From the NCBI GenBank assembly GCA_016784125.1, contig JADHVI010000002.1, forward strand, positions 35,653 to 99,652: DNA of 64,000 nt, given 5' to 3'. Positions 18,822 to 45,486 of this stretch are shown piece by piece. The stretch is from Candidatus Woesearchaeota archaeon (GTDB lineage Archaea; Nanobdellota; Nanobdellia; Woesearchaeales; GCA-2686295). A program made the translations under genes and the position numbers. The first letter of the stretch is position 1. Each line of letters opens with the position of its first letter. The notes beneath the pieces are model-generated. The model ran no database searches, was not told the DNA's origin, and saw nothing but the letters and a program-made list of their open reading frames with translations.

Positions 18822-19205
18822 ATGGTAACAAGAAATACATTTCAAAGACAAAAAATACTTGAATATCTTAGCAGTGTAAAAACTCATCCTACAGCAGAAA
18901 TGGTTTACAAAGAAGTCTTAAAAGACATTCCAACAATTACACTAGCAACTGTATACAGAAACCTAAACTTGTTAGCTAAACAAGGGGTAATACTCAGATT
19001 AGAAGTAAATAAAGAATATCACTATGATGGGTGTACTGAAGAACACCAACACGGTGTGTGTCAGAAATGCGGAAATATAATGGATTTTATGAACGAAGAA
19101 TTGTCACAATATGTCATAACACACTTGAAACAAAAAGATTTTAAACCTTCAACAGTCAACATAATCTTTCAAGGGACTTGCGAAAGTTGCAATGAGGTGC
19201 TTTAA
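18822..19205 (+). CDS. Fur-family metalloregulator (PerR/Fur-like)
   Basis: 127 aa with a winged-helix N-terminus (ATVYRNLNLLAKQG), an HHG-containing metal site (EEHQHGVCQKCG) and a second CxxC (CESC). Confidence 0.85.
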   Translation: MVTRNTFQRQKILEYLSSVKTHPTAEMVYKEVLKDIPTITLATVYRNLNLLAKQGVILRLEVNKEYHYDGCTEEHQHGVCQKCGNIMDFMNEELSQYVITHLKQKDFKPSTVNIIFQGTCESCNEVL

Positions 19206-19264
19206 TGGGATGTTGTAAAAAGAAAACAGACACTAAAACCAAGAAAAAGTCTTGTAAAGAATAA
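19205..19264 (+). CDS. candidate 19-aa Cys/Lys-rich micro-ORF (MGCCKKKTDTKTKKKSCKE)
   Basis: Its ATG overlaps the Fur stop codon (TAATG). It lies between the regulator and the peroxiredoxin gene. It is not in the ORF track because it is under 60 aa. Confidence 0.2.
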   Translation: MGCCKKKTDTKTKKKSCKE

Positions 19265-19329
19265 TGCTCAAATCTTTAAAAAAAAGTAATAGAACTAGCT
19301 CAAGCTATATTCTAAAGGAGGAAAACAAA

Positions 19330-19926
19330 ATGAAAAACGAAGAAAATTGTGATTGCTATGAAGTTGCAGACATAAATAAACCAGCGCCTGCATTCACAGC
19401 AGAAGCATTCCACAAAGAACAAATAAAAAAAATTAATTTAGAAGATTACAAAGGAAAATGGGTTGTACTATACTTCTACCCAGCAGACTTCACATTTATC
19501 TGCCCAACTGAATTAGGAGATATGGCAGATCACTACGAAGAATTAAAAAAGATGAATGTAGAAGTATTATCAGTATCAACCGATACAGTTTTTGTTCATA
19601 AAGCATGGCATGATGATTCAGAAACCATCAACAAAATCAAATTTCCAATGGTTGCAGACCCAACAGGATTTATCTGCAGAAGTTACGGAACAATGATTGA
19701 AGAAGAAGGATTATCTTTAAGAGGAACATTCATTATCAATCCTGAAGGAGTATTGAAAGCATTCGAAATACACGATAATTCAATCGGAAGATCAGCAAAG
19801 GAATTAATAAGAAAAATACAAGCAGCTCAATACGTCGAAACTCATGGCGGAGAAGTATGCCCTGCAAATTGGAAGCCAGGAGAAAAAACACTGAAACCAA
19901 GTCTCGAACTTGTTGGAAAAATATAG
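19330..19926 (+). CDS. ahpC: typical 2-Cys peroxiredoxin (AhpC/Prx1 type)
   Basis: FYPADFTFICPTE peroxidatic Cys motif and GEVCPANW resolving Cys motif. I chose the ATG at 19330 because AAGGAGG lies 8 nt upstream. Confidence 0.92.
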   Translation: MKNEENCDCYEVADINKPAPAFTAEAFHKEQIKKINLEDYKGKWVVLYFYPADFTFICPTELGDMADHYEELKKMNVEVLSVSTDTVFVHKAWHDDSETINKIKFPMVADPTGFICRSYGTMIEEEGLSLRGTFIINPEGVLKAFEIHDNSIGRSAKELIRKIQAAQYVETHGGEVCPANWKPGEKTLKPSLELVGKI

Positions 19927-20322
19927 GTGATACAAATGTTAGAACAAAATGAAATTTATAAATGTCCACTCTGTGGCAATGTAATTTCAGCACAAGAAGC
20001 TAATGGACCAATCCCAGTTTGTTGCGGACAAACCATGAAGAAGATGCCTGAAATAACAGTCAAAGAGGAAGGCACAGAAAAACACAAACCAGTTGTAAGC
20101 ATTAAAGGCGATAAAGTTATTGTCAATGTTGGCTCAATCGACCACCCAATGGACGAAGATCATTGGATTGAATTCATACAGATCTTAAAAGACGGTAAGG
20201 TTATTGCTGAGAAGAAGCTATATCCAGGTGATAAGCCTAGAGCAGAATTCTTAGTTGAAGATTCAAATAACATTAGATCAAGAGCATATTGCAACATGCA
20301 CGGTTTATGGACAAACGATTAA
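19927..20322 (+). CDS. dfx: desulfoferrodoxin (2Fe superoxide reductase)
   Basis: N-terminal desulforedoxin-type CPLCGN...CCG and a C-terminal SOR site (KHKPV...CNMHGLW). An alternative start is the ATG at 19936. Confidence 0.9.
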   Translation: MIQMLEQNEIYKCPLCGNVISAQEANGPIPVCCGQTMKKMPEITVKEEGTEKHKPVVSIKGDKVIVNVGSIDHPMDEDHWIEFIQILKDGKVIAEKKLYPGDKPRAEFLVEDSNNIRSRAYCNMHGLWTND

Positions 20323-20373: not shown

Positions 20374-20730
20374 CTAAAAAGCACAATATTTACAATTAGT
20401 TTTCTTGCATGTTTCATTATTACCATGCCACTTCAAAGCCCAGATTTTCATGCTTTTTATAACACTAATAAAAGCTAATCCTTTATCTGTTAGAATGTAC
20501 TGACAAGTAATTGGAAATGCAGAAGTGTCTATATTCTTTTGAACAATATCTAGCTTCTCAAGTTCTTTTAGTCTTGAAGACAATAATTTTGGCGTAATAC
20601 CTGGAATTGAGCGTTTGAGTTCAGAGAATCTTTTGTTAGATGTTCCCTTATATAACTCTTGTAAAATCAACAAAGTCCATTTTTTCCCTATGAAATCAGC
20701 AACTTCATAGATAGTGCATTCTGGTTTCAT
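20374..20730 (-). CDS. HxlR-family winged-helix transcriptional regulator
   Basis: C-x-I-x-x-V-x-D-x-IGKKWTLLILQEL ... FSELKRSIPGITPKLLSSRLKELE is the canonical HxlR pattern. Confidence 0.85.
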   Translation of the reverse strand: MKPECTIYEVADFIGKKWTLLILQELYKGTSNKRFSELKRSIPGITPKLLSSRLKELEKLDIVQKNIDTSAFPITCQYILTDKGLAFISVIKSMKIWALKWHGNNETCKKTNCKYCAF

Positions 20731-20807: not shown

Positions 20808-21815
20808 TTAAGGCTTATTTTTCTTATGTCTCATCCATAAAAACATTCCCACTATTAAAATAAAAATCAAAAACAATATAATGCTCAAAAGATTCGCATA
20901 CTGCCAACCAATAAGTGCATTCTGAATTGAATAAAAGTATTGCTTTGTACCAAAGACATCCCATGAATTAAATACACTCGTACCCTTAAATATCAGAAGT
21001 ATAAAACCTATGAATAAGAACAAAATACCAGCTATAAAATTAGTTGAATGAATGTGATAAGTTTTATCATCTATCTTAAACTTAAACATTTTACCTTTAA
21101 TAAATCTGCTTTTAGACAAATCAAATTTATCATAAAGCATAGATAAGACAAATAAAGGCACAAGATTGCCAATAGAATAAAACAGCAGAAGCATAGCAGA
21201 ATAAAAAATATTATGAAGCAAAGCACCAATACCAAGAATTCCTGCAAGTATAGGACCTAAGCAAGCAGTCCAACCAATAGCAAAAAATACTCCGAATAAT
21301 AAAGTTCCAGGAATATCATTATTGAATTTTCTATTAGGCTTTATAAAAGAAGCAAAACCTTTGCCAGAGATTGAAACAAGACCCATCAGAATCAAAAAAA
21401 CTCCTGCAAGTGTTACTAACCAATTACTCTGTAATATTGAAAGTGATCGTTCACCAATAAAGCCCGCAATAATACCCATCACTACAAATACTGCTGCAAA
21501 GCCTACAAAAAATACGAGAGTCATCTTAGTGATATTCTTCTTCTCTTTGAATGTATAAGAGAAGTAAGCAGGTAAGAATGGTAAGATACAAGGAGATAAT
21601 ATACCTAAAATACCAGCAACAAAAGCTATGAAAAAAGAGATTTTGACAGAGAAGTCAAGGGTTTGTTGTTGATTTGATTCTATTATCTTCTGTAAACCAA
21701 TAGGTAATTCTGAAGAGTTATCTCCATCATGACTATGATTTTCATGTGCAGTTACAATCGAAGCAAAAGCTACTAAGAAAATCAATAATAACAAAACTGA
21801 AAATAATCTCTTCAT
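20808..21815 (-). CDS. ccdA: CcdA/DsbD-family transmembrane thiol:disulfide electron transporter with His-rich N-terminal segment and C-terminal TM extension
   Basis: A signal peptide is followed by AHENHSHDGDNSS. TM1 motif SPCILPFLPAYFSY and a second Cys helix (GWTACLGPILAG) are typical of CcdA. About 100 extra hydrophobic residues follow at the C-terminus. Confidence 0.8.
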   Translation of the reverse strand: MKRLFSVLLLLIFLVAFASIVTAHENHSHDGDNSSELPIGLQKIIESNQQQTLDFSVKISFFIAFVAGILGILSPCILPFLPAYFSYTFKEKKNITKMTLVFFVGFAAVFVVMGIIAGFIGERSLSILQSNWLVTLAGVFLILMGLVSISGKGFASFIKPNRKFNNDIPGTLLFGVFFAIGWTACLGPILAGILGIGALLHNIFYSAMLLLFYSIGNLVPLFVLSMLYDKFDLSKSRFIKGKMFKFKIDDKTYHIHSTNFIAGILFLFIGFILLIFKGTSVFNSWDVFGTKQYFYSIQNALIGWQYANLLSIILFLIFILIVGMFLWMRHKKNKP

Positions 21816-21820
21816 CTTAT

Positions 21821-22261
21821 TTACTCAACTATTAATTGTCCTCTCATACTACCATGACCAGCTCCACAAGGAACATTACAAAAAAATGTAAATGTTCCAG
21901 TTTTATCGGCTATAAAGTTTACATTCACTTCTTGTCCTGGTTCTAACATTTCATTCACACCGAATTGTGAAAGCATAAAGCCATGAGTTACATCGACACT
22001 CTTTATGTGTAATTCCACGTTATCACCAAGATTCACTCTAATCTCAGAAGGTTCAAAGTTCCAATTTCTGGCAATGAGATCAAATTCTCTCACTTCACCT
22101 GAGAACTTGTCATCTCCATTAGCAACATCAGTTGCTTGAGAGTCAATTGTTTGTTGATTACAAGCAACTAGCAATAATAGACTGGCAAGTAATAATATTA
22201 ATTTTTTGTTTTGCAATTTTGTCACCTCATTAAAAAAAATAAAAAAATTATGGTTGAACAA
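21821..22261 (-). CDS. stand-alone cupredoxin lipoprotein with CuA-type metal site
   Basis: Lipobox LLLVAC. The spacing H-x34-C-x3-C-x3-H-x2-M (THGF...FFCNVPCGAGHGSM), counted by hand, matches the binuclear CuA consensus. Confidence 0.75.
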   Translation of the reverse strand: MFNHNFFIFFNEVTKLQNKKLILLLASLLLLVACNQQTIDSQATDVANGDDKFSGEVREFDLIARNWNFEPSEIRVNLGDNVELHIKSVDVTHGFMLSQFGVNEMLEPGQEVNVNFIADKTGTFTFFCNVPCGAGHGSMRGQLIVE

Positions 22262-23399
22262 TTTCTCCTGTCGTCAAGTCCTTATATGGTTGTCTAGAAA
22301 CGTCCACTAACCTAAATACATAAGTACCATCAGTTTCTACTGTGCCAACATCCTTCCACGCGCTAACAATAACAGAATAAGCACCAACATCACCTTCCAA
22401 TATAATCGTAGGAACTTTTACAATGTTATATTTTTCAATTAATGCTTGACCTTCTGAAGTAGAAATATCAACTGATTTTTCCTCTCCGAAAACAGCACCC
22501 ATATTTACCAAAATTGGTTTATGAAAACTATTTGGATCATAACATTCAGTACATGTTTCATCTGTTATGACAGTCATTGAAAGCAAACCAACAACTCTAT
22601 TCTCGGTTAAATCAACATAAGGAGGAGTTAATAATCTAGTCACATAATAACCGTTTGATTCCACACTTCCCAGTTGATTCCAACTACCAGTAATACCTGA
22701 ACCATAAATTTCCAAATCACTTGACAATATTAAAGTTGGAATTGTTTGTATGTTATATTGAGATATTAACACTTGACCTTCAACACTGTTCATTTCAATC
22801 GTACGCTCATCAGTAATAACTACTCCAGATTGTTTCACACTATTTAACAAAACATCCAAATTATAACAATTGTCGCACGAAGAATCTTGAACTAATATTG
22901 TTAATACTCTTCCTTGTAATTCGCCAGAAACTGCATCAGTATATGGCGGTATGAGCGATCTAAAGACTAAAGCATCATCCTGAAGTTCCATATTTCTAAT
23001 AGAAGTCTTGTTAATTTGACCAAACAATAATACACTTGGAATCTTTTCTATTCCATATTCAGAAATCAGTTCTTTTGCTTCTTCTGAATCAAAGTTTAAA
23101 GATTGTTCTTGTGTTATATTTACGTGAGACTTCTTGATAGTATCAATAATTGGTTGAATATCAAAACAATCATTGCAACTATAATCCGTTATAGTTATCA
23201 TTTGTAGCTCAGCAGGTTTGGTTGCTTCTTTTACCACTGCAAGTCTCTCATCAAGCAAACTATCAAAAGAAGATGTTTGCACAATATTAAATATGGCTAC
23301 CAGTATCAAAACGATTCCCAATACTAAATAGTAATTTTTATGAGAGTTGACTTGTTTGCTGGTTTTTTTAGCGTTTTTCTTATTTTCCATTAACATCAC
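22248..23399 (-). CDS. membrane-anchored protein with three tandem thioredoxin-like CxxC repeats
   Basis: A basic N-tail and one TM are followed by three repeats of about 100 aa. Each repeat has ITD-x-x-CxxC(F/Y) (CNDC, CDNC, CTEC) and a downstream (I/V)P(S/T)(V/L/I)(L/I)L cis-Pro-like element. Confidence 0.7.
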   Translation of the reverse strand: MMLMENKKNAKKTSKQVNSHKNYYLVLGIVLILVAIFNIVQTSSFDSLLDERLAVVKEATKPAELQMITITDYSCNDCFDIQPIIDTIKKSHVNITQEQSLNFDSEEAKELISEYGIEKIPSVLLFGQINKTSIRNMELQDDALVFRSLIPPYTDAVSGELQGRVLTILVQDSSCDNCYNLDVLLNSVKQSGVVITDERTIEMNSVEGQVLISQYNIQTIPTLILSSDLEIYGSGITGSWNQLGSVESNGYYVTRLLTPPYVDLTENRVVGLLSMTVITDETCTECYDPNSFHKPILVNMGAVFGEEKSVDISTSEGQALIEKYNIVKVPTIILEGDVGAYSVIVSAWKDVGTVETDGTYVFRLVDVSRQPYKDLTTGEIVQP

Positions 23400-23422: not shown

Positions 23423-23647
23423 TTAACAACCGCCCACCATTGTTGGTAGATTTTGTATGCTTGTTGGCAAAGCTGCGGGTTGACTACCGCTGCCTCCTGA
23501 TGATAACGGCGTTGTGCTAGTTGAAGAGCCAATTGATAGATCTTCATTAGCGATTTCTGATTTTAAATTGTTTAATTGAACTGCTTGAACGATTGACAGC
23601 ACCACAAGTACTACCATCACCACAGTTACTATTGTTGTTGATTTCAT
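23423..23647 (-). CDS. small membrane-anchored protein ending in NLPTMVGGC-COOH
   Basis: 74 aa with a GAGGTG SD 7 nt upstream. It has an N-terminal TM, a Ser/Thr/Gly linker, and a C-terminal tail shared with the 258-aa protein. Confidence 0.6.
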   Translation of the reverse strand: MKSTTIVTVVMVVLVVLSIVQAVQLNNLKSEIANEDLSIGSSTSTTPLSSGGSGSQPAALPTSIQNLPTMVGGC

Positions 23648-23661
23648 TTTTTTACACCTCG

Positions 23662-24105
23662 TTAGTATTCACATCCTGTAAGCTCAGCCAATCTTTCAAA
23701 AGATTGAACACGCTCATATTCCTGACCATCTATTACCCATGTTGGTCTTAGATTAAGGTCTTCTTCAATTTCATAATTAATATATTTGAATGATTTACCA
23801 AACATCTGTTTTTGACCATTCGTATATTGACACCAATCTTCACCATACATCACAGCGCCCTTCTCTGTTAAACATTTAGCAAAGTTATCCCAGTTACCAG
23901 GTTTTTGGCTTGAATAAACACCGAATATTACTAATAAAATAACTATTGCCAAAGAAACAAAACCAATTGTTTTATTTCTTCTACTTCTGGAAACTTTGTT
24001 AGTTTTGAAAAGTTTATCTCGCTGTTTCCTATTAGATTCCACCTGTTCACTGGCAGCCTTCTGATTCTCTAATCGACGTTTTCTTCTCTCATTTTTTGAC
24101 ACCAT
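23662..24105 (-). CDS. membrane-anchored thioredoxin-like protein with a single active-site Cys (VKOR-associated Trx-domain type)
   Basis: GAVMYGEDWCQYTNGQKQMFG ... RPTWVIDGQEY ... LAELTGC resembles the Trx-like domain fused to VKOR homologues (YGA-WC-x-HC-x-x-QK), but CxxC is reduced to C-Q-Y-T. Confidence 0.6.
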   Translation of the reverse strand: MVSKNERRKRRLENQKAASEQVESNRKQRDKLFKTNKVSRSRRNKTIGFVSLAIVILLVIFGVYSSQKPGNWDNFAKCLTEKGAVMYGEDWCQYTNGQKQMFGKSFKYINYEIEEDLNLRPTWVIDGQEYERVQSFERLAELTGCEY

Positions 24106-24125
24106 TTTTTATGCGTTTTATGCGT

Positions 24126-24299
24126 TTATCCGCAGCCCCCTCCGACGTAATCTGAACTTGGCGGTGGTATAGTGTTTGGGTCTCCCGAAGAACATCCCAC
24201 TACTACTAAGGCTAAGATTACTAACAAAGCCACTACAAATAACATTTTGTTTCTTGCGTATAACAATTTCAAAGAATTGTATATTACACCTATATTCAT
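24126..24299 (-). CDS. small anchored/lipoprotein-like protein ending in YVGGGCG-COOH (not in ORF track)
   Basis: 57 aa: MNIGVIYNSLKLLYARNKMLFVVALLVILALVVVGCSSGDPNTIPPPSSDYVGGGCG. Its ATG is 1 nt after the upstream stop, with GGAGG 8 nt upstream. An alternative start at 24245 gives a 39-aa lipobox (VVGC) form. Confidence 0.45.
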   Translation of the reverse strand: MNIGVIYNSLKLLYARNKMLFVVALLVILALVVVGCSSGDPNTIPPPSSDYVGGGCG

Positions 24300-24300
24300 T

Positions 24301-25077
24301 TTAACAACCTCCTACCATTCCTGGTAAATTATCCAAAGCAGATGTATCTCCACCCGCAACAGTCATTCCTAACTCAATCATGTTCTTTGGAAAGAATAGT
24401 GTCTTCCACTTTATTACTTCTCGCAATATTTCTCCATCATTGTAATCAGTGTAAGCTGTTAAGTAAAGAGTCACTGATAGAAGAGCAGGGTTATGTTGAC
24501 AACCACATTTAGAGTTGCCGTTCTTGTCAGCGCCTGCAGGGCCAATTCCACAACAATATTCACATGAAACTCCATATGGATTTGAAGCGAGATTTATGTA
24601 TCTCTGGAATGCTTCTGGATTACTTTGTTTTACTTCTGATTTCAATCCTTCAAACATCCTTGCCAGAGTTGCTAATGAAGTAACTGGATCATCAAAGTTT
24701 ACTCCTAACGCATCTCCATACTCAGGTGTTCCTGTTGGAAATAAAATAGCCATTGCATCTTCTGCAGTGTATATATTCTCTACAGGAAAAACTGCCGCAA
24801 TAGCATGACCTGTTGATGTTATCTTTGATAAGTCAAGATCTAAAAGATCAGTTCCGCCAGCATTAATTGATCTTGCACTAACAGAATTTAAATCACCAGA
24901 GATACTGTTTATTTGTGTTTGATTAAAAATCATTACTACAAGTACTAAGACAAACAAACCAATGATTGGCATTGTAAGTGCGTTCTCTGTCTTTTTCGTT
25001 TTGGCTTTTGTTGTTTTAGTTGTCGTTTTAGCTTTAGTTTTCGTTTCCGCTTTTATTTTTGTTTTTCCTTTTTCCAT
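24301..25077 (-). CDS. membrane-anchored Cys-rich protein ending in NLPGMVGGC-COOH
   Basis: 258 aa with a Lys/Thr-rich cytoplasmic tail, one TM, the Cys cluster SCEYCCGIGPAGADKNGNSKCGCQHNP, and the same C-terminal tail as the 74-aa protein. Confidence 0.65.
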   Translation of the reverse strand: MEKGKTKIKAETKTKAKTTTKTTKAKTKKTENALTMPIIGLFVLVLVVMIFNQTQINSISGDLNSVSARSINAGGTDLLDLDLSKITSTGHAIAAVFPVENIYTAEDAMAILFPTGTPEYGDALGVNFDDPVTSLATLARMFEGLKSEVKQSNPEAFQRYINLASNPYGVSCEYCCGIGPAGADKNGNSKCGCQHNPALLSVTLYLTAYTDYNDGEILREVIKWKTLFFPKNMIELGMTVAGGDTSALDNLPGMVGGC

Positions 25078-25196: not shown

Positions 25197-26963
25197 TTGG
25201 AACTTCAGGGGGAAAAAATAGTGAAAATTAATCGACCATTTGTAATCCTATTAATATCATTAATAATGTTAGTTATAATAGGCGTAGTTGTATTTACTAA
25301 TGTTCTCTCATTCAGAAATATAGAATCAGTTCTAATAAATCAGTTAAAAGAAAATCAGTTGACTCAAACAGAGTTTGCAGCTTCTCAAATAGAAGATTAT
25401 GTACTCCAAGTAAAAAACGAGTTGATAACACTAAGCAAGTTTCCAGACATAGATTCCTTCAATATGAATGAATGCAATGGCGATATGTCCATAGTTCATG
25501 GGGATATAGAAGGAAAAATAAATAATCTATTAAGAGTTGAAAAAGATGGAACCGTAATTGAATGTTCATCACCAATTTATTCTAATTTTGTCGGTTTGAA
25601 CATACAAAATAAGGATTATTTTCGGATCCCTAAAGAAACAAATGAGCCGTTCATAGATAGTTCTATTAGACAAGGAAACATGAGACAGATAATCATCGCA
25701 GCACCTCTTTTTGAAACAACAGAGTATACTCCTTATCCAAATTTTCTTGGTCGGTTTGAAGGTTTACTGTTGAGTATCATCGAAGTTAATACACTTTACA
25801 ATATGTACATACACCCAATAGCAGATCCTGAAAAAAGCTCTTTCTTATTAATCAGTTTGGAGACTGGCGAGACTATTCTTAAAAGTAATAATATGGCAGA
25901 ATACTCTGAGATCAAGAATGATATTCCAATAAAAAGCAGACAGTTGAGTGCAATCAGTAATTTTAATGGTTTCGGAGAAACAATCTTTACTTCATCAGAT
26001 ATGATTCTAGGCTCTGAAACTTGGAGATTAATTGTTTTAACACCTCTGGAAAATATAGAGGAAAATGTGGGGAGTGTTCAAAAAAGACATTTTTTCATTC
26101 TAGGATTTGTAATAGTTGTAATCATTGCATTGTTCTTTTTTATGATAACACTTTACAAGTCAAAAGAAAAAGTACAACTAAAATTAGATAGAGCCAATGT
26201 AACCTTAGAACAGTTAGGCATCAATATTGAAACTGAAACAGACAAATACAATCAAGCAGATATAACTCTTGAACCAAAAAAAATATACTTAATAAAAGAA
26301 GACGACGAAAATCATGCACATGAATTGTTTATAGATTCTCTTAATAAGGGATTTGCAGGTCTTGGAATTGTAAGAGAAAATCCACGCGAGCTTAGAAAAA
26401 AGTACAATTTACAAAAAACTTCTTTCATATGGATGACAGATACTAAAACTGTAGATATTCCTACAGAAATGAAGATAGATAACTTGTACAGGTTAATCTC
26501 AGAGTTTGTCAAGAAGAGCAAAAAGTGTGTCATTCTAATAGATAGACTTGATTATATTTTATCCGAGAACAGCTTCGAAGATGTCATAAAGAGAATTCAT
26601 TCTTTGAAAGATTTGGCATTATCAAATAATTGCATAATAATAATCTCTGTTAATCCAGAACTGGTTCCTGATGTTCAGCTTAAAGCAGTAGAAACTGAGA
26701 CAATCGATTTGTATGGAAAACATCTAAGTGATAAAGTGAATCTTTCTGAGATGGAGTTTGAAATGCTAAAACTTGTGAATGAATATAATACTACAAATAA
26801 GCTAATATCTTACAAAGACATTACAAGTAAATTCAATATTACAAAGCCAACAACAAGAGCAAAGATTAACAACTTGCAAAATCTTAGTTTAATACAAGTA
26901 GAACAGAGAGGAAGGTTTAAATCTCTTAAAATCACGTCGACAGGAAGAAGAATTATAGGTTAA
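25197..26963 (+). CDS. membrane-bound one-component sensor/regulator: extracytoplasmic sensor domain - TM - DUF835 - winged helix
   Basis: Two TM segments flank an external domain of about 260 aa. The DUF835-like core is GLGIVRENPRELRKKY...FIWMTD...CVILIDRLDYIL. A C-terminal wHTH follows (ISYKDITSKFNITKPTTRAKINNLQNLSLI). An alternative start is the GTG at 25221, 8 nt after GGGGG. Confidence 0.7.
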   Translation: MELQGEKIVKINRPFVILLISLIMLVIIGVVVFTNVLSFRNIESVLINQLKENQLTQTEFAASQIEDYVLQVKNELITLSKFPDIDSFNMNECNGDMSIVHGDIEGKINNLLRVEKDGTVIECSSPIYSNFVGLNIQNKDYFRIPKETNEPFIDSSIRQGNMRQIIIAAPLFETTEYTPYPNFLGRFEGLLLSIIEVNTLYNMYIHPIADPEKSSFLLISLETGETILKSNNMAEYSEIKNDIPIKSRQLSAISNFNGFGETIFTSSDMILGSETWRLIVLTPLENIEENVGSVQKRHFFILGFVIVVIIALFFFMITLYKSKEKVQLKLDRANVTLEQLGINIETETDKYNQADITLEPKKIYLIKEDDENHAHELFIDSLNKGFAGLGIVRENPRELRKKYNLQKTSFIWMTDTKTVDIPTEMKIDNLYRLISEFVKKSKKCVILIDRLDYILSENSFEDVIKRIHSLKDLALSNNCIIIISVNPELVPDVQLKAVETETIDLYGKHLSDKVNLSEMEFEMLKLVNEYNTTNKLISYKDITSKFNITKPTTRAKINNLQNLSLIQVEQRGRFKSLKITSTGRRIIG

Positions 26964-27041: not shown

Positions 27042-27431
27042 ATGTATGGATATAATAAACAAACAAACGCTTCATTTGAAGAAACAATTGAAAAAACAAA
27101 AGAAGAATTACAAAAAGAAGGTTTTGGTGTTTTAACTGAAATCGATGTCAAAGCAACGTTTAAAAAAAAACTAGGTGTTGAGTTTGACAAATACATCATA
27201 TTAGGTGCTTGCAACCCACCATTTGCATACAAAGCTTTACAGGTAGAAAAGGAGATAGGTTTGATGTTACCTTGCAATGTAATCGTGTATGAACAAGAAG
27301 GCAAAACAGTTGTCTCAACAATATTACCTACCGTTGCTATGAGCATGGTTGGGAATGAAAATCTGAAAGCCATAGCAGAAGAGATTGAAGAAAAACTGAA
27401 GAGAGTTGTAGATAATATATCTGAGAATTAA
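27042..27431 (+). CDS. DUF302-domain protein
   Basis: FEETIEKTKEELQKEGFGVLTEIDV...YIILGACNPPFAYKAL...LPCNVIVYE matches the DUF302 pattern. Confidence 0.85.
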   Translation: MYGYNKQTNASFEETIEKTKEELQKEGFGVLTEIDVKATFKKKLGVEFDKYIILGACNPPFAYKALQVEKEIGLMLPCNVIVYEQEGKTVVSTILPTVAMSMVGNENLKAIAEEIEEKLKRVVDNISEN

Positions 27432-27443
27432 TGGAGGTAAAAA

Positions 27444-27617
27444 ATGGTATTTGGTTTATTTAAAAAAACAGATCCCATATGTGGGATGAAGGAAGAAAAA
27501 GGTAAAGGTATTACAAAACACGGACAATGGTTTTGTAATGAAAGCTGCTTGAGAAAATATGAAGCAGGAGAAGAAAAAGATGAGAAGAAACATGAAGGAT
27601 CATGTTGTTGTCATTAG
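27444..27617 (+). CDS. YHS/TRASH-type metal-binding mini-protein with CCCH C-terminus (not in ORF track)
   Basis: 57 aa: MVFGLFKKTDPICGMKEEKGKGITKHGQWFCNESCLRKYEAGEEKDEKKHEGSCCCH. DP-x-CGM...FC-x-x-x-C is the YHS/TRASH signature. GGAGGT lies 5 nt upstream. Confidence 0.65.
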   Translation: MVFGLFKKTDPICGMKEEKGKGITKHGQWFCNESCLRKYEAGEEKDEKKHEGSCCCH

Positions 27618-27626
27618 GAGATACAC

Positions 27627-28049
27627 ATGTTTAACAATGTAAAAGAACGGATTATAGGAACAACAGGGAGTATTTCCGGATTTGCAAGTGTACTTGGTTC
27701 TTGGCAAATATGTCACAATGTTTGTCTGGGATTAATAGCTTTGTTAAGTGTTATAGGAATAACTGTGACAGGTATGCCTCTAATGTTTCTGACAAAGCTA
27801 GCAATTCCTCTTTGGACAGCGGCAGTTATACTATTAGGAATAACTACTTGGTTTTTCGTTAAGAAGAAGTGTATTTCTGGAAAACTCATAATGATAAACT
27901 CTGGCTTGATAATTGCAGGCATTCCTTTTCAAGCACTTCAAAGATTCTCAATAATTTTCTGGATTGTTGGTGGAATCATAGCTGCAACAGGAATTGGTTT
28001 TTTTATCAAGGATAAGATTCAAAAACAAAAGATGAAGGTGAAAAAATGA
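27627..28049 (+). CDS. four-TM membrane protein with intramembrane CxxxC (CHNVC)
   Basis: 140 aa, hydrophobic, with the Cys pair at the start of TM1. It overlaps the next gene by 4 nt. Confidence 0.6.
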   Translation: MFNNVKERIIGTTGSISGFASVLGSWQICHNVCLGLIALLSVIGITVTGMPLMFLTKLAIPLWTAAVILLGITTWFFVKKKCISGKLIMINSGLIIAGIPFQALQRFSIIFWIVGGIIAATGIGFFIKDKIQKQKMKVKK

Positions 28050-28516
28050 ATAAAAACGTTGAGAAATATTTTTTATATGGATTTCTTGTTTTAGCAGCTT
28101 TCGGTTTAATATTGGCTTTCACTGGTTTTACGTTTGATAGTGTAAGCGCAGAAAAAACAGTTGATAACAAACAGAACATAGAAACGAGTGAAGAATCATT
28201 TAAGTTAATTTCTTCGGGAAGTACAGATTCTGGTGACGTTTCAGTTGATTTGAAACCTCACAAAGTAGTTAATGGAAAATTAGAAGTGGATATTTCTGTA
28301 AATACTCATAGTGTTAGTTTAGAAGGATTTGATTTGAAAGAGTTAACAACTTTGGAGTTTAATGGTAAATTCATCAAACCAACTTTAGCACCATCATTAA
28401 CAGGACATCATAATTCTGGAACATTAACTTTTGATGTTAATGAAAATATTGATAGTTTTACAATAAAAATAATTGGAATTCCAAAAGTTGAGGAAAGAAT
28501 TTTTGAGTGGAGGTAA
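28046..28516 (+). CDS. secreted/anchored beta-rich protein of copper island
   Basis: N-terminal TM. VDISVNTHSVSLEGFDL...LTGHHNSGTLTFDV resembles proteins seen next to metal-resistance genes. No family name is assigned with confidence. Confidence 0.55.
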   Translation: MNKNVEKYFLYGFLVLAAFGLILAFTGFTFDSVSAEKTVDNKQNIETSEESFKLISSGSTDSGDVSVDLKPHKVVNGKLEVDISVNTHSVSLEGFDLKELTTLEFNGKFIKPTLAPSLTGHHNSGTLTFDVNENIDSFTIKIIGIPKVEERIFEWR

Positions 28517-28518
28517 AA

Positions 28519-29001
28519 ATGAAAAAAAATAGTTTAATTATAATTAGTTTGTTGCTTATCAGCATATTTTTGATTTCAGCTTGCAGCCCAAACAACAGTA
28601 AATATTTTGATAATGAGGGAAATGGTGAATTTTCTGACACAAAAATATCTGCTTACAAATCACGATATTGTGGTTGTTGTGTAGGTTATGTTGCTGAATT
28701 GGAGAAATATAGCTTCGACATTGAAACTATTGAAATGGAGGATCTGACATCTATAAAGAATCAACATAATATTCCTCAAAGCCTACAGAGTTGTCATACA
28801 TCTGTTGTTGGAGAATATTTCATTGAAGGACATGTTCCTATAGAAGCAGTTAGAAAGCTTCTTGAAGAAAAACCAGACATAGATGGAATTGGATTAGCCG
28901 GTATGCCTTCTGGAACTCCTGGTATGCCTGGTGCAAAAAGAGAAGCATGGCACATATATGCTCTGAAGGATGGAATACAGTCAGAATTTATGACTATATG
29001 A
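28519..29001 (+). CDS. copG: DUF411/CopG-family periplasmic metal-binding protein
   Basis: Lipobox LISAC, the CGCCxxY motif (YCGCCVGYV), CHTSVVGEYFIEGHVP and GMPSGTPGMPG. I chose the ATG at 28519, 5 nt after GGAGG. Confidence 0.85.
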   Translation: MKKNSLIIISLLLISIFLISACSPNNSKYFDNEGNGEFSDTKISAYKSRYCGCCVGYVAELEKYSFDIETIEMEDLTSIKNQHNIPQSLQSCHTSVVGEYFIEGHVPIEAVRKLLEEKPDIDGIGLAGMPSGTPGMPGAKREAWHIYALKDGIQSEFMTI

Positions 29002-29011
29002 GGTGATAAAT

Positions 29012-29503
29012 ATGAAAAGAAAAAATTATCATGAACAAACAGTATTAGGAATGGGAATTGCACTGATAGTAATAGCAGTTTTGGTAGTTACAATAATTCC
29101 GGGTCGTTATATGTATGGACACCATATGAGTATGGACGGTCACATGAGTAATCACATGGATAATGATCATATGAATATGGATGAGAAAATGAGCTCATTC
29201 ATGTTCCTAAGAGATGATATGAGACATGAATTGATAACAGATGGCAATTACAAATGTTGTTTAGAAACCTCTTGCACTTACTGTCTTGCAAAACATGGCG
29301 AATGTGATTGTTTAGAAGATATTTATAATGGAAAACATCCTTGTGGTGAATGCATTGGTGAAATATTGGAAGGACATGGCAATATTTTTGTAGCAAAATA
29401 TTTTGCAACTGCCATAGCAGAGAAAGTTGGAGAAAATCATTTAGATTCTCTCAAACAAATCATCTCTGAAAAGTATAATATAACTGTAGAAGAACAGGTT
29501 TAG
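29012..29503 (+). CDS. membrane-anchored His/Met-rich, Cys-rich putative copper-binding protein
   Basis: YGHHMSMDGHMSNHMDNDHMNMDEKM is followed by KCCLETSCTYCLAKHGECDCLEDIYNGKHPCGECIGE. I chose the ATG at 29012, 6 nt after GAGGTG. Confidence 0.65.
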   Translation: MKRKNYHEQTVLGMGIALIVIAVLVVTIIPGRYMYGHHMSMDGHMSNHMDNDHMNMDEKMSSFMFLRDDMRHELITDGNYKCCLETSCTYCLAKHGECDCLEDIYNGKHPCGECIGEILEGHGNIFVAKYFATAIAEKVGENHLDSLKQIISEKYNITVEEQV

Positions 29504-29507
29504 AAAA

Positions 29508-29960
29508 ATGATGAAAAAATACTTGGTGCTAATAATTTTTTTTGTTTTGTTATTAAACGCATGTTCTGAACAAACAGAAGAAACAACAACGCAAGAAAAT
29601 GAAACAAAACTTGAAATGGTTGATTCAAATTATATCTTGGAAAGTGTAGATAATTCGAATGTGGTTTTACTAGATGTAAGAACAGAAAAAGAATTTAGTG
29701 AAGGACATATTCCAAATGCTGTCATGGTAGACAGGTACTCTGCACTAAATGAAAATGGTGATCTTAAAAGTGTTGGAGAACTAGAATTTTTATTTAGCAA
29801 TGTGGATAAAAACAAAGAAATCATTGTTTACTGTCGATCTGGAAGAAGAGCAGGTCTTGCTGCGGAAGCTATGACAAAAAAACTTGGATTTGAAAATGTC
29901 AAGATTTACCAAGGTTCTATGAATGATTGGAATAGTAAGAACTTGACTATAGAACAATGA
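29508..29960 (+). CDS. rhodanese-domain lipoprotein (sulfurtransferase)
   Basis: Lipobox LLNAC, GHIPNAV, and the active-site loop YCRSGRRAG. Confidence 0.85.
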
Positions 29961-32173
29961 AAGAAAATAGCAAAACAACTATACAAATAGAGGGCATGAG
30001 TTGTGCTAGTTGTGTTGCAACTATAGAACATGCATTAAAAAAAAAGAAGGGCGTGAATAATGCTTCTGTAAATCTGGCAACAAAGAAATCAACTATTGAG
30101 TTTAATTCAATTCAAATTTCTGAAGAAGAACTCAAAAAAACCATTGAAAATGCTGGTTACAAAATTTTCTTAAAGTCAGAAAATAAAGATGAAGAGAAAA
30201 AAGTACGTGACAAAGAAACAAGAAATCTCAAATACAGAGTAATTGCATCAATTATTTTAGCTCTACCACTACTATATTTTGCCATGGGACCTCACATAGG
30301 TTTATCCATTAGTTCTTTTATTACAAATCACATGGCTTTAATACAATTCTTGATAACCACACCCATAATAATAGTTGGTTATGAATTCTATTATAAGGGT
30401 TTTAAATCAGTTATAAAGGCCAAAACTGCTAATATGGACACTTTGGTTGCTATTGGTACTGGTTCTGCGTATATCTACAGTATTTTTGCAGCTATTAATG
30501 GTAATGTTGAACACTTATACTTCGAAGTTGCTGGAATATTAATCGCATTCATTCTTCTTGGACGTTATTTAGAAGCAAAAGCAAAAGGAAAAACAGGTGA
30601 AGCAATAAAGAAACTAATGGGTTTATCAGCAAAAACTGCGCTTGTGATAAGAAATGGAAAAGAGATGGAAGTCTTAATTGATGAAGTCATTGTAGGAGAC
30701 ATCGTTATTGTTAAACCAGGACAAAAAATACCTGTTGATGGAATAATAACAAAGGGATATTCAAGTGTTGATGAAAGCATGATTAGTGGTGAAAGTATGC
30801 CAGTTGAAAAAACCATTGGAAATAAAGTTATAGGTGCAAGCATGAATAAAACTGGCAGCTTCAATTTCAAAGCTACAAAAATTGGTTCTGAAACTGTTTT
30901 GGCTCAGATAATTAAGATGGTCGAAGATGCGCAAGGAAGCAAAGCACCAATTCAGAAAATTGCAGATGTTGTTGCATCATATTTTGTTCCAGTAGTTGTA
31001 AGCATCGCAATTATTTCCGGTATAGCATGGTATTTCTTTGGAGGGTTTGCATTCGCCTTAAGTATATTTGTTGCAGTACTAATAATTGCTTGTCCTTGCG
31101 CTCTAGGACTGGCGACGCCCACTGCCATAATGGTTGGTACTGGAAAAGGTGCAGAAAATGGTATATTGTTCAAAAACGCCCAAAGTCTTCAGTTGGCACA
31201 AAAAATAAATACTGTTGTATTCGACAAAACAGGCACATTAACTAAAGGCAAACCTCAAGTCACAGATATAATAAGTTTTTCAAAATACAAAGATAGAGAT
31301 TTGTTATTATACGCTGCAGTTGCAGAAAAAAATTCAGAACATCCATTGGGTGAAGCAATAGTTAACTATGCAAAAGAAAAAAAATTGTCTTTAAAGAATC
31401 CTGAAAAGTTCAATTCAATAACTGGAAAAGGAATTGAAGTCCAATACAATGGTCTCCTTATTGATTTAGGAAATCGAAAGTTAATGGAAGAAAAAAATAT
31501 TAGTTACAACAATGCCTTAAAAGATCTCAGAACACTTGAAACCGAGGGAAAAACGGTTATGTTAATAGCCATAAACAAAGAATTAGCAGGCATAGTCGTG
31601 GTTGCAGATACATTAAAAGAACATTCAATAGAAGCCATAATAGCATTAAAGAGTATGGGTGTTGAATCTATAATGATAACAGGAGATAATAAAAGAACAG
31701 CAGAAGCAATTGCAAAACAATTAGGAATAAAAAGATTGCTTGCAGAAGTACTGCCACAAGATAAAGCCATTAATGTAAAAATATTACAAGAAGAAGGGAA
31801 AAAAGTGGCGATGGTTGGTGATGGAATAAACGACGCACCTGCACTTACACAAGCAGATATTGGAATTGCAATAGGAAGCGGCACAGATGTAGCCATTGAA
31901 TCAGGAGATATAGTTTTGATAAAAGAAGATTTACGTGATGTGGTGGTAGCAATGGACTTGTCAAGATACACCATGAAAAAAATTAAGCAAAATCTATTCT
32001 GGGCATTCTTCTATAATAGCATTGGTATTCCTTTAGCAGCAGGTCTTTTGTATCCTTTCTCAGGTTTTTTGTTAAGTCCAATCATAGCTGGAGCAGCAAT
32101 GGCATTTAGTAGTGTAAGTGTAGTTACAAATTCATTGTCCATGAAAAGATATAAAGCAAAAATGAGTTTATAA
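29957..32173 (+). CDS. copA: copper-translocating P1B-type ATPase
   Basis: N-terminal HMA domain GMSCASC, TGES, the transmembrane CPC motif ([11 protein letters not shown]), DKTGTLT and GDGINDAP. Confidence 0.96.
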
Positions 32174-32187
32174 TCCACTTAATTGAT

Positions 32188-33474
32188 TTATTTTTCTTCC
32201 CAATTCACTTTTAAGAAATGTGCTGAACAGCTAAAGCATGGATCATAAGCTCTTATTAACTTCTCAATTTCCAGTGTGATATAATCTTTACTTTTATTTT
32301 TCTGTAGCATTTGTTCAACGTATACTTGTATGTGTTCTTCCATTCCGCGCAGGTTCTGTACTGTGGGAGTTATAATATTACACTTAGTTACGTTTCCATC
32401 TGCATCAAATTGGTATTCATGAAATAAAACTCCTCTTGGTACTTCTGTCACTGCACGACCCGTGCCTGGCCGTATCTCAAACTGTAATGGTTCTTCTAAT
32501 TTGAATTCATTTTCTTCCAGAATTTTCACCCCATTATTTAACCAGTGTACGAGTTCTGCTGCTTGAGCAATATTATTGTAGAAAATGTTCTTGCTCGGAA
32601 ACAATATGTGATGTTCTGATAATATTCTTTTGATATCTGGAGTTATATTTTTATAGTTAAGATTGAATCTTGCCAATGCACCTGTTATGAATCCTTTTCC
32701 TTTTCTTACAGCGAATTTCGCAGTTGAATATTTTACTATGTATTCACTTATGAAATCTGTGTAATCATGAGATACTGTTTTTAATCCTTTATCTGAAATG
32801 ATTGGTCCTTCCAATAATGGTTGTCCTTCTTGTGCATAAATAGCAACGTGTTCAGAATCAAGTTCTAGTTTTGGATACTTAAGCTTACAAAACAACTTCA
32901 ATGTATCCATTGCATCATGCTTGCTTTCTTTTAATAGATCAAGTAAATACTGCACGTCTTCTTGTGAAGGAACATGAGTAAATCCTCCAACTACTGAAGA
33001 TACTGGGTGCATTTGTCTCCCACCAACTTTAGCGACTATTTCATTACCTGCTTTCATGAGTTTCATGGCTTTTTCAATTTCCCTCTTGTATTTGGGAGCC
33101 ATTTCTATAGCTGATTCATAACCAAGATAATCTGGCAAGGCTAAGAAATATAAATGTGTAGCATGGCTTCTAATTCTCTCACCGATAGACATGAGTTCTC
33201 GTAGTAGTTTTGTCTGCTCTGTGACTTCAATTCCAAAAGCATTTTCAGTCGCTTTAAGAGATGTCATACTATGACCTACACTGCAGATACCACAAATTCG
33301 TGAAGTAATTTCTTTTATGTCATCATATTTCCTTCCAACAACAAGACCTTCAAAAAATCTTGCACCTTCTACCGCACCCAACTCACATTTCGTCAGGTTT
33401 CCATTTTCTATTTCAACATCCAGATTTGCATGTCCTTCAACTTTCGTGATATGATTCAAAGTAATTTTTGTCAT
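32188..33474 (-). CDS. hydA: [NiFe]-hydrogenase large subunit, group 3b (sulfhydrogenase alpha)
   Basis: N-terminal RICGICSVGH (RxCGxC) and C-terminal DPCFSCSAH followed by a short cleavable extension. Confidence 0.93.
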   Translation of the reverse strand: MTKITLNHITKVEGHANLDVEIENGNLTKCELGAVEGARFFEGLVVGRKYDDIKEITSRICGICSVGHSMTSLKATENAFGIEVTEQTKLLRELMSIGERIRSHATHLYFLALPDYLGYESAIEMAPKYKREIEKAMKLMKAGNEIVAKVGGRQMHPVSSVVGGFTHVPSQEDVQYLLDLLKESKHDAMDTLKLFCKLKYPKLELDSEHVAIYAQEGQPLLEGPIISDKGLKTVSHDYTDFISEYIVKYSTAKFAVRKGKGFITGALARFNLNYKNITPDIKRILSEHHILFPSKNIFYNNIAQAAELVHWLNNGVKILEENEFKLEEPLQFEIRPGTGRAVTEVPRGVLFHEYQFDADGNVTKCNIITPTVQNLRGMEEHIQVYVEQMLQKNKSKDYITLEIEKLIRAYDPCFSCSAHFLKVNWEEK

Positions 33475-45462: not shown

Positions 45463-45486
45463 CCCTCATTCTTTAAATAAATTTAA

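Follow-up and report, generated by a model that had tools for sequence, protein, structure and literature searches.

A stand-alone CuA-type cupredoxin lipoprotein among copper, thiol and oxidant-defence genes of a Woesearchaeota archaeon

CuA centres are, to our knowledge, otherwise known only as the electron entry of oxidases, nitrous oxide (N2O) reductases and some NO reductases, and all CuA centres of known function lie within terminal reductases. Here, a CuA-type cupredoxin lipoprotein is described from Candidatus Woesearchaeota archaeon (contig JADHVI010000002.1), encoded on the minus strand at 21821..22216 of a 64-kb stretch of DNA; this whole stretch is referred to as the window, and coordinates are counted from its first letter. 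Sequence and structural modelling indicate that the protein very probably carries a real CuA site, which would bind copper, and the best reading of its surroundings is that it belongs neither to a heme-copper oxidase nor to an N2O reductase as a subunit.

The closest described proteins are encoded by the “nosZ-like” gene that Zhang et al. (mBio 2024; PMC10936187) reported from 21 of 33 DPANN metagenome-assembled genomes (MAGs) of oxygen-deficient zones (ODZ). These proteins possess a CuA motif and a signal sequence, are without CuZ, come from MAGs without other respiratory genes and are placed in the tree between Cox2 and clade II NosZ; the gene did not complement a nosZ deletion of Pseudomonas aeruginosa (PMC10936187). 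Related functions have been described in bacteria. In the TlpA-ScoI-PcuC-CoxB system of Bradyrhizobium, TlpA must reduce the CuA cysteines of CoxB prior to metallation (PMC6669012), and in Salmonella the thiol system Scs (ScsBCD) cooperates with CueP in copper resistance (PMC10907172). Roles in copper tolerance under anaerobic conditions are described for CopG (DUF411, CxCC) and for the cupredoxin CopI (PMC7558416), and in M. tuberculosis a complex of DoxX, the rhodanese SseA and SodA, which has a genetic interaction with a P-type ATPase, links radical detoxification and thiol homeostasis (PMC6930017).

The open reading frame (ORF) at 21821..22261 (−) is confirmed in the window. A recount of its product by hand and by regular expression agrees with the ligand spacing claimed by an earlier sequence-only reading of this DNA: the His of DVTHGF is followed by 34 residues and then by CNVPCGAGHGSM, which gives H-x34-C-x3-C-x3-H-x2-M. 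The full pattern occurs once in the six-frame translation of the window, compared with 1.5e-4 matches expected from the residue frequencies. The length of 146 aa given by the same reading has to be shortened. The deposited ortholog P0001, which is 99% identical to the window protein, has 131 aa, and a Shine-Dalgarno-like GAGGTGA lies 5 nt upstream of a TTG codon at 22214-22216; the gene is therefore taken as 21821-22216, the true start being almost certainly this TTG and the first 15 codons of the 146-aa ORF non-coding. The 131-aa product begins with a K-rich n-region and a Leu-rich h-region, followed by the lipobox LVAC (in the context LLLLVAC), whose Cys19 (codon 22160-22162) would be the mature N-terminus, and the cupredoxin domain occupies residues ~41-131. 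The N-terminal pair of transmembrane (TM) helices typical of COX2 is replaced by this single signal peptide, as the sequence-only reading had proposed, and the AlphaFold2 (AF2) model contains one N-terminal helix (residues 5-18). Among 120 homologs, 72 have a lipobox-like Cys. The window has a GC content of 33.7%, and the best-matching homologs are named Nanoarchaeota or Woesearchaeota.

Residues H78, C113, C117, H121 and M124 are invariant in an alignment of 30 sequences, and the 34/3/3/2 spacing is exact in 118 of 120 database homologs. The ligand set, identified by this invariance, by the fixed spacing and by the match to the NosZ and ba3 ligands, spans 21845..21985 (−), with the codons of His78 at 21983-21985, Cys113 at 21878-21880, Cys117 at 21866-21868, His121 at 21854-21856 and Met124 at 21845-21847; Val115 (21872-21874) corresponds to the backbone-carbonyl position. 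The offsets (His, +35 Cys, +37 carbonyl, +39 Cys, +43 His, +46 Met) are identical to those of the ba3 CuA site. In a HMMER search of PDB sequences, the NosZ CuA domain 5i5i was matched at 1.2e-11 and the Thermus ba3 CuA domain 2cua at 6.6e-10, and all five ligands (His, two Cys, His and Met) align with the CuA ligands of NosZ and ba3. The Pfam models Cupredoxin_1 (PF13473; 4e-11, 43.3 bits against a threshold of 27) and COX2 periplasmic domain (PF00116; 2.5e-6, 27.8 bits against 22) both score above threshold. The AF2 model, a cupredoxin fold with predicted local distance difference test (pLDDT) values of 97-98 over residues 41-131, superposes in Foldseek over 91 columns with a root-mean-square deviation (rmsd) of 1.1 Å on 2cua and 1.0 Å on 6pty, and the best matches include NosZ CuA domains at an E value of about 1e-9 (6.6e-10). 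The two comparisons that the sequence-only reading had suggested, with COX2 and cupredoxin profiles and with Thermus CuA domains, thus both came out in its favour, and the predicted fold together with the alignments makes the case for a bona fide CuA site about as strong as computation allows.

Judged by the profiles, the kinship with NosZ and CoxB is at the level of the domain only. The Sec-type NosZ model TIGR04246 gives 58.8 bits (3e-16) against a cut-off of 625, over the last ~80 model positions only, and TIGR04244 gives 52.5 bits against the same cut-off; CoxB (TIGR02866) gives 50.1 bits against 147.7, so that the protein is an equivalog of none of them. Two other copper-protein models also stay below their limits: the type 1 blue copper model PF00127 gives 20.8 bits, under its threshold of 21.2, and a second bridging Cys is present where a type 1 His-Cys-His-Met site has a single Cys; nitrosocyanin (TIGR03096) reaches 38.5 bits against a cut-off of 142.85. 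The window protein also has a CuA ligand set and an export signal, which separates it from the CupA-type Cu(I) chaperones. CupA of S. pneumoniae is likewise a membrane-tethered cupredoxin with a binuclear, Cys-bridged copper site and an adjacent CopA (PMC7558416), whereas CupA faces the cytoplasm with Cys2/Met2 ligands and the window protein is exported with Cys2His2Met. Compared with COX2 of the ba3/aa3 type (2CUA), the fold (rmsd 1.1 Å) and the C-N-x-x-C-G-x-G-H-x-x-M loop type are shared, whereas the window protein has a lipobox and no TM hairpin, and no COX1 partner is found in the window or in the homolog loci L001-L091 described below. The CuA domain of clade II (Sec-type) NosZ provides the top sequence and structure matches (5i5i, 1.2e-11; Foldseek, 6.6e-10) and is also Sec-exported; however, the window protein lacks the seven-bladed CuZ propeller and is one fifth the size of NosZ. 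In PmoD, the CuA-like site forms between two monomers, whereas one chain of the window protein supplies all ligands. PmoD of methane and ammonia oxidisers is comparable in being an exported cupredoxin, outside the oxidases and N2O reductases, that can form a CuA-like site (PMC6189053).

Partner genes were sought in the window and in 91 fetched loci with a family member (L001-L091, 79 of them non-redundant) with flanks of ±10 kb. Among ~50 proteins encoded by the larger window ORFs, Pfam recognises no COX1, NosZ propeller or heme-synthesis family. With CyoB, CyoC and CyoE of E. coli as queries, phmmer gave no significant match to any called ORF of 60 aa or more, either in the window or in L001-L091 (best CyoB E = 0.18). 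No COX1, heme-synthesis or NosZ-propeller gene therefore lies within the 64 kb or within 10 kb of the 79 homolog loci, in line with the earlier statement that none is nearby. Neither a Sco or PCuAC homolog nor a nos accessory gene was found in the window. By Pfam, the ten large ORFs richest in TM helices are flippases, Na/H antiporters, a major facilitator superfamily transporter, one NapH-cupredoxin fusion and one protein without a match; CopA is also among the TM-rich proteins. A split COX2 or hidden oxidase is accordingly rejected for the window and for the ±10-kb flanks of the 79 homologs, and by the published MAG survey; identity with NosZ is rejected since the match to the NosZ models is confined to their last ~80 positions. 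A 640-aa protein with a C-terminal CuA domain in L056 was considered as a NosZ and has no nos_propeller match. The window genes recognised by Pfam in the ~50 proteins include SRP54, enolase, phosphoenolpyruvate synthase, pyruvate:ferredoxin oxidoreductase (PFOR), acetate kinase and phosphotransacetylase (ACK/PTA), superoxide reductase and peroxiredoxin, and further Fur, cysteine desulfurase, SMC, RNase HII and S-adenosylhomocysteine hydrolase. PFOR, ACK/PTA, a group-3b-like NiFe hydrogenase and superoxide reductase are genes of a fermentative anaerobe type, which is consistent with the anaerobic archaeon that had been supposed. A tRNA scan of the window found none.

The protein belongs to the CuA-only “nosZ-like” family of DPANN archaea, being short and exported with a CuA motif and no CuZ, and coming from a DPANN genome with no respiratory gene in the window. 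The C-x3-C-x3-H motif is shared, as is the occurrence in genomes of the Woesearchaeota/Nanoarchaeota type, which in the published survey are without respiratory chains, and the score against the NosZ model (58.8 bits, 3e-16) lies within the published range (PMC10936187). The core observation of the sequence-only reading is thus correct and not new, since the family had already been reported. The protein is also less unexpected than that reading judged, since the family, with its CuA site and no respiratory partner, is already described and is very widespread. The published account describes the family as ODZ-specific, suggests N2O reduction and notes acyl-carrier neighbours (PMC10936187), whereas here at least 550 species genomes, including groundwater DPANN and bacteria of the candidate phyla radiation (CPR), carry the family, with neighbours and fusions of the thiol-relay, copper-export and oxidant-defence type. 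This number comes from a pattern scan with one genome per species; the best 80 of these genomes comprise Woesearchaeota, Nanoarchaeota, Micrarchaeota, Aenigmatarchaeota and Undinarchaeales, together with the CPR bacteria Roizman-, Magasanik-, Kerfeld- and Parcubacteria. When 1.84 billion representatives were searched with the profile, ~875 clusters (50% identity) were retrieved at E<=1e-30. This breadth, CPR included, is new beyond the published account. The DPANN and CPR members are 50-60% identical, which suggests lateral transfer between these two ultrasmall radiations.

A minor point concerns names. Several “binchicken” MAGs with the gene (e.g., L023, L026, L027, L032 and L041) are titled “uncultured Gammaproteobacteria” or “Methanosarcinales”, which are probably automatic mislabels because synteny and gene content fit CPR or DPANN relatives.

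Seven genes run in one direction from 25077 to 20808 with gaps of 1-31 nt, and the CuA gene is number six among them. Directly upstream, with a gap of 31 nt, lies the gene of a membrane-anchored triple thioredoxin-fold protein (22248..23399, −) with the motifs CNDC, CDNC and CTEC, and 5 nt downstream lies that of a CcdA/DsbD-type TM thiol-electron transporter (20808..21815, −; Pfam DsbD_TM) with Cys76 and Cys185; the thiol-relay operon of the sequence-only reading is thereby confirmed, and these genes lie on the same strand as the CuA gene. The four genes further upstream (23423..25077, all −) encode a 258-aa protein with the Cys cluster SCEYCCG...CGCQHNP and a C-terminal LPGMVGGC (24301-25077), a 57-aa lipoprotein with a GGGCG end (24126-24299), a 147-aa VKOR-type thioredoxin-like domain in which CxxC is degraded to CQYT (23662-24105) and a 74-aa protein with an LPTMVGGC end (23423-23647). 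They have no Pfam, NCBIfam or PDB-fold match and co-occur with the cupredoxin in 8-11 of the 79 loci. As in the TlpA-CoxB system, a CcdA and thioredoxin pair accompanies a CuA gene and is here co-transcribed with it; in contrast, the window thioredoxin has three domains and the window holds no Sco or PCuAC homolog.

A second operon, of the cop type (27042..32173, +), is divergent to the CuA operon at a distance of about 5 kb. It was overlooked in the sequence-only reading and is the best clue to the function of the CuA protein. It consists, all on the plus strand, of DUF302 (27042-27431), a CxxxC membrane protein (27627-28049), a 156-aa exported protein (28046-28516), a DUF411/CopG-like lipoprotein with CGCC, a CopG-type CxCC (28507-29001), a Met/His-rich protein with eight Cys (29003-29503), a rhodanese lipoprotein with the active loop CRSGRR (29508-29960) and an HMA-CopA Cu(I) P1B-1 ATPase with CPC, YN and MAFSS (29957-32173). 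Between the two divergent operons is the gene of a membrane sensor/regulator (25197..26963, +) with dCache, DUF835 and a C-terminal helix-turn-helix, which probably regulates both; it is placed alike in L005, L017, L022 and L078. On the other side of the CuA operon are genes for a Fur/PerR-like regulator (18822-19205, +), a peroxiredoxin (19264-19926, +), a desulfoferrodoxin-type superoxide reductase (19927-20322, +) and an HxlR regulator (20374-20730, −). Since the CuA operon is flanked by these genes and by the cop-like operon, a copper, thiol and oxidant-defence island of ~13 kb (18.8-32.2 kb) can be delimited. The set recalls the Scs/CueP/CopA systems in its DsbD-type membrane reductase, thioredoxin-fold proteins, exported Cys-liganded copper protein and Cu(I) ATPase; however, CueP is not a cupredoxin and the CopI site is mononuclear, whereas the window protein has a full CuA site, and the homology with Scs is at the level of the fold only.

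Three proteins of the cop-like operon have no family model and look like copper-binding or copper-transport components. The product of 27627-28049 (+) has 140 aa and is polytopic with CHNVC, that of 28046-28516 (+) has 156 aa and is exported with scattered His, and that of 29003-29503 (+) has 166 aa, with a Met/His-rich stretch (HHMSMDGHMSNHMDNDHMNMDEKM) followed by eight Cys.

Several features of the thiol-relay operon can be added as observations in their own right. An attempt to identify the 258-aa protein ended with an all-helical AF2 model of pLDDT 77 that matches no PDB fold at E <5 and with no Pfam or NCBIfam match. Its family has at least 955 homologs at 55-75% identity, those named by source being DPANN, with the invariant cysteine cluster SCE[YF]CCG...G.S.CGC.HNP. 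Two membrane-anchored families of the operon, of ~75 aa and ~258 aa, end in a strictly conserved LP[GTSQ]MVGGC-COOH, and the 57-aa GGGCG lipoprotein lies between them. This end recalls the C-terminal GGCGG swinging-arm cysteine of SoxY, which is reactivated via the CcdA homolog SoxV and thioredoxins. The N-terminus of the window CcdA resembles a cleavable signal peptide followed by HENHSHDGD, and cleavage would expose a His-rich, possibly copper-binding tail; similar AH..E/H-rich N-termini are found on a 189-aa His-motif family (HWH...HTH[DE]) encoded between the CuA gene and CcdA in L012, L015 and L017.

Neighbours were counted within ±6 kb in the 79 non-redundant loci, and densities per 100 kb were compared near the gene and far from it; ORFs were taken from a simple greedy caller on contigs many of which are short, and phylogenetic independence does not hold for the counts. 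Of the 79 loci, 51 have a partner of the thiol, copper or oxidant-defence type. The most frequent neighbour is a DsbA-like CPFC protein (17 loci; 2.2 near, 0.47 far), followed by DoxX (14 loci; 1.94 near, 0 far), the HMA/P-type ATPase CopA (14 loci; 2.07 near, 0.70 far) and CcdA (13 loci; 1.94 near, 0.23 far). The 258-aa family occurs in 11 loci, an Fe/Mn-type superoxide dismutase (SOD) in 10 (1.29 near, 0 far), the ten cases forming one conserved CPR synteny block, and the CxxC membrane protein u190 in 9 (1.16 near, 0 far); the triple thioredoxin and the VKOR-type thioredoxin-like domain are each found in 8. The recurrence of DoxX (14 loci), SOD (10 loci) and rhodanese fusions around the family resembles the mycobacterial DoxX-SseA-SodA complex, whereas no cupredoxin is known in that complex and DoxX and SOD are absent from the window.

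Four arrangements recur among these loci. In the window and in L005, L012, L017, L022, L024 and L052 the order is 258aa - Trx-like - 74aa - tripleTrx - CuA - (His-rich 189aa) - CcdA, and a further order is DsbA - u190 - CuA - DoxX - (Lit) - (CopA). The CPR genomes have TrmD - CuA - SOD - GluRS, in the block YidD< TrmD> CuA> SOD> GluRS> of L021, L028, L032, L033, L051, L071, L073 and L077, the informatively titled of which are CPR/Patescibacteria; the SOD of this block is divergent and has no signal peptide. In L001 the CuA gene is directly upstream of the ATPase.

Fusions join the CuA domain to redox domains. Fusion to a rhodanese with the active loop CRSG is seen in at least eight homologs, among them those at L011 7001-7696, L093 8001-8693 and L094 2678-3367 (P0049, P0085 and P0054), which have ~230 aa and a TM anchor. 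DUF411 (CopG-like) adjoins the fusion in all three of these contexts, HMA or CopA genes accompany it in L011 and L093, an ArsP permease is present instead in L094, and the three fusion operons are collinear with the rhodanese-CopA operon of the window. In L022, the fusion P0415 has the order TM - tripleTrx - linker - CuA. P0434 is a CuA-motif cupredoxin fused to a polytopic NapH/NosH-like Fe-S protein, a NapH-like protein fused to a type 1 cupredoxin is encoded in the same cluster at L024 4431-5939, and a NapH-like protein lies directly downstream of the CuA gene at L074 6994-8214. These NapH/NosH-like proteins contain two CxxCP motifs and two 4Fe-4S motifs, and their fusion or adjacency implies a transmembrane electron route to cupredoxins in some lineages.

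The protein u190 is polytopic, with a conserved intramembrane G-x-C-x-x-C and a C-terminal Cys, and is encoded at L015 9409-9915, L045 10848-11420, L018 8857-9516 and L001 8446-9963. It sits between the DsbA-like (CPFC) genes and the CuA gene, never in the flanks, has no Pfam match and may be a partner of the DsbB/VKOR type. The u190 gene of L001 immediately precedes those of CuA and the ATPase, and its product is joined to a further domain (PCCN...C.H...GGGCGV) that is similar to the 258-aa family. Homologs of Lit (PF07314, lipoprotein intramolecular transacylase) adjoin the CuA lipoprotein and DoxX in L016, L058, L060, L061 and L087, on contigs labelled Woesearchaeota or Nanoarchaeia; they are unexpected for archaea and possibly relevant to acylation of the lipobox protein.

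Relatives of the CuA domain take further forms. The cupredoxin paralogs at L014 8968-9405, L038 6427-6843 and L069 19897-20307 have no CuA His/Met set and are CupA-like, with Cys...C-S-M-G-M-G; the CxMxM paralog of L038 is directly upstream of CopA and was found by the same hidden Markov model (HMM) as the family. A second true-CuA paralog subfamily (~155 aa, ICSIYCGFGHSTMKG) stands beside the main family in L005, L017, L068 and L078. In P0345 (686 aa), two CuA domains at the N-terminus precede a propeller-like domain of ~440 aa, a domain order that is the reverse of NosZ, and P0335 (382 aa) is a lipoprotein with three tandem CuA-like domains, in two of which Gln replaces the axial Met. The family profile also retrieved the nine-repeat protein P0344, which is placed outside the family because its repeats are of type 1 and not of the CuA kind.

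A role as a one-electron carrier in an envelope copper and thiol homeostasis island, and not in respiration, has about an even chance of being correct for the CuA protein. The best explanation of the site is a binuclear copper with two Cys, two His, a Met and a backbone carbonyl as ligands, on a protein that a lipid anchors to the outer face of the membrane. CopA, the P1B-1 ATPase of the divergent operon, would export and thereby supply Cu(I). By analogy with TlpA-CoxB and Scs-CueP, CcdA may hand cytoplasmic reducing equivalents to the co-transcribed triple thioredoxin, which may in turn keep Cys113, Cys117 and other surface thiols reduced for metallation. The holo-protein would then cycle between Cu(I)Cu(I) and Cu(1.5)Cu(1.5) and could carry single electrons, in either direction, between surface thiol or sulfur proteins (thioredoxin domains, rhodanese and the DsbA-like proteins of relatives) and external copper ions or oxidants. 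A cell without quinones or a respiratory chain would in this way handle exported Cu(I) independently of O2 and protect its exposed thiols. That CuA is found fused to rhodanese, to thioredoxin and to NapH-like domains speaks more for a true redox partnership than for mere maturation, and the thioredoxin fused to a CuA domain in one relative in particular suggests more than a maturation role.

Several points weigh against this role. CuA centres are kinetically inert electron-transfer sites and no obvious copper buffers, and the donor and acceptor proposed here are putative. The thiol proteins might serve in maturation alone. In 28 of the 79 loci, no partner of the thiol, copper or oxidant-defence type is present within 6 kb, the enrichment of CopA over the immediate flanks is modest (2.07 against 0.70 per 100 kb), and the sole recurrent functional neighbour in CPR genomes is a cytoplasmic-looking SOD. 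The thioredoxin-CuA fusion is rare: since none of 94 triple-thioredoxin homologs carries PF13473, the P0415 fusion is an isolated case.

The copper genes would also suit a protein without redox function, in which the Cys2His2Met site holds or passes on two Cu(I) released by CopA, as CupA and CueP do, and the relay only keeps the ligands reduced. The proximity of CopA and DUF411, the fusions inside cop-like operons and the CopA-adjoining CupA-like CxMxM paralogs found by the same HMM are consistent with such a chaperone or buffer, as are the binuclear copper site of the cupredoxin CupA (PMC7558416) and the reduction and loading of CueP by Scs proteins (PMC10907172). However, chaperone sites are usually Cys/Met-rich and solvent-exposed, whereas here the full CuA set, including both His and the Met, is invariant at fixed spacing; known CuA sites retain their copper, a lipoprotein with two copper ions would be a poor buffer, and the NapH-like fusions indicate electron flow, which leaves this explanation rather unlikely. 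The neighbours could instead be assembly factors only, the thioredoxins reducing the ligands and CopA giving copper, with the redox partner encoded elsewhere, for instance in a surface exchange with a host cell. TlpA and CopA2-type ATPases are dedicated assembly factors of CuA and other cuproproteins in bacteria, the 28 loci mentioned above have no informative neighbour, and the protein is surface-exposed in lineages thought to be host-attached; yet a permanent link between CuA and a rhodanese, thioredoxin or NapH-like domain points to partners in fixed stoichiometry and away from catalytic maturases, and the window CopA operon has companions of the detoxification type (DUF411 and the Met/His-rich protein). 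We regard this arrangement as improbable.

Electron flow in the oxidative direction has also to be weighed. CuA may serve as a copper-based electron sink for oxidative folding that re-oxidises DsbA- or thioredoxin-like proteins, possibly via u190 or DoxX, without quinones, DsbB or VKOR and passes electrons to O2 or an external oxidant. The gene order DsbA-like (CPFC) > u190 > CuA > DoxX of about a dozen loci fits this best, VKOR-type thioredoxin-like domains occur without VKOR, and DoxX, u190 and SOD are found solely near the gene and never in the flanks. The window, in contrast, has as partner CcdA, which normally imports electrons (reductive), and is without u190 and DoxX; CuA reacts poorly with O2, no terminal acceptor is known, and the organism looks anaerobic, so that a sink of this kind is decidedly unlikely. 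It is highly improbable that the protein is the electron-entry module of a cryptic or split terminal reductase, either N2O reductase or a heme-copper oxidase for which a gene elsewhere, or a host, would provide the catalytic subunit. The closest relatives in sequence are indeed the CuA domains of clade II NosZ (TIGR04246, 3e-16; 5i5i, 1e-11), the NapH/NosH-like neighbours recall the clade II nos electron pathway, and P0345 joins two CuA domains to a propeller-like domain; but the 64 kb and the surroundings of the 79 homologs contain no CuZ propeller, COX1 or heme-synthesis gene, the scores are far under the cut-offs (58.8 against 625 for NosZ, 50.1 against 147.7 for CoxB), and the published complementation was negative in a family whose MAGs are without other respiratory genes (PMC10936187).

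The family, noticed only recently, matters as a conserved, widespread stand-alone CuA protein of organisms with the smallest known metabolisms. The gene context gives no support to the published suggestion of N2O reduction, and the CcdA/thioredoxin genes, the rhodanese and NapH-like fusions, DoxX and SOD redirect the question to envelope copper and thiol redox homeostasis and provide testable partners. If correct, the carrier role would explain how quinone-less episymbionts protect or manage surface cysteines and exported Cu(I) under anoxia, and the protein would offer a natural soluble CuA protein for bioinorganic study. A bolder and rather doubtful extension is that stand-alone CuA forms the hub of a minimal heme- and quinone-free extracytoplasmic electron transfer in DPANN and CPR, which are without quinones, hemes and respiratory chains, fed via CcdA/thioredoxin or NapH-like Fe-S proteins and leading to surface thiols or persulfides, Cu(II)/Cu(I), O2-derived oxidants or even a host. 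If so, it would represent a new physiological role for CuA and could provide disulfide chemistry in DPANN and CPR with its missing partner for re-oxidation or reduction.

Three other features of the window are recorded for completeness. Directly downstream of CopA on the opposite strand, four genes at 32188-35999 (−) encode a NiFe hydrogenase with a large subunit, an Oxidored_q6 small subunit, an NAD-binding/Fe-S subunit and a Fer4_22 subunit, which resembles the group 3b “sulfhydrogenase”. In a second extracytoplasmic thiol pair at 43696-46413 (−), the first protein (588 aa) has a GILT-like thiol reductase domain and the next (308 aa) is DsbA-like (Thioredoxin_4) with CFKC. Additionally, two RNase HII paralogs of 262 aa and 218 aa are encoded side by side at 55953-57398 (−).

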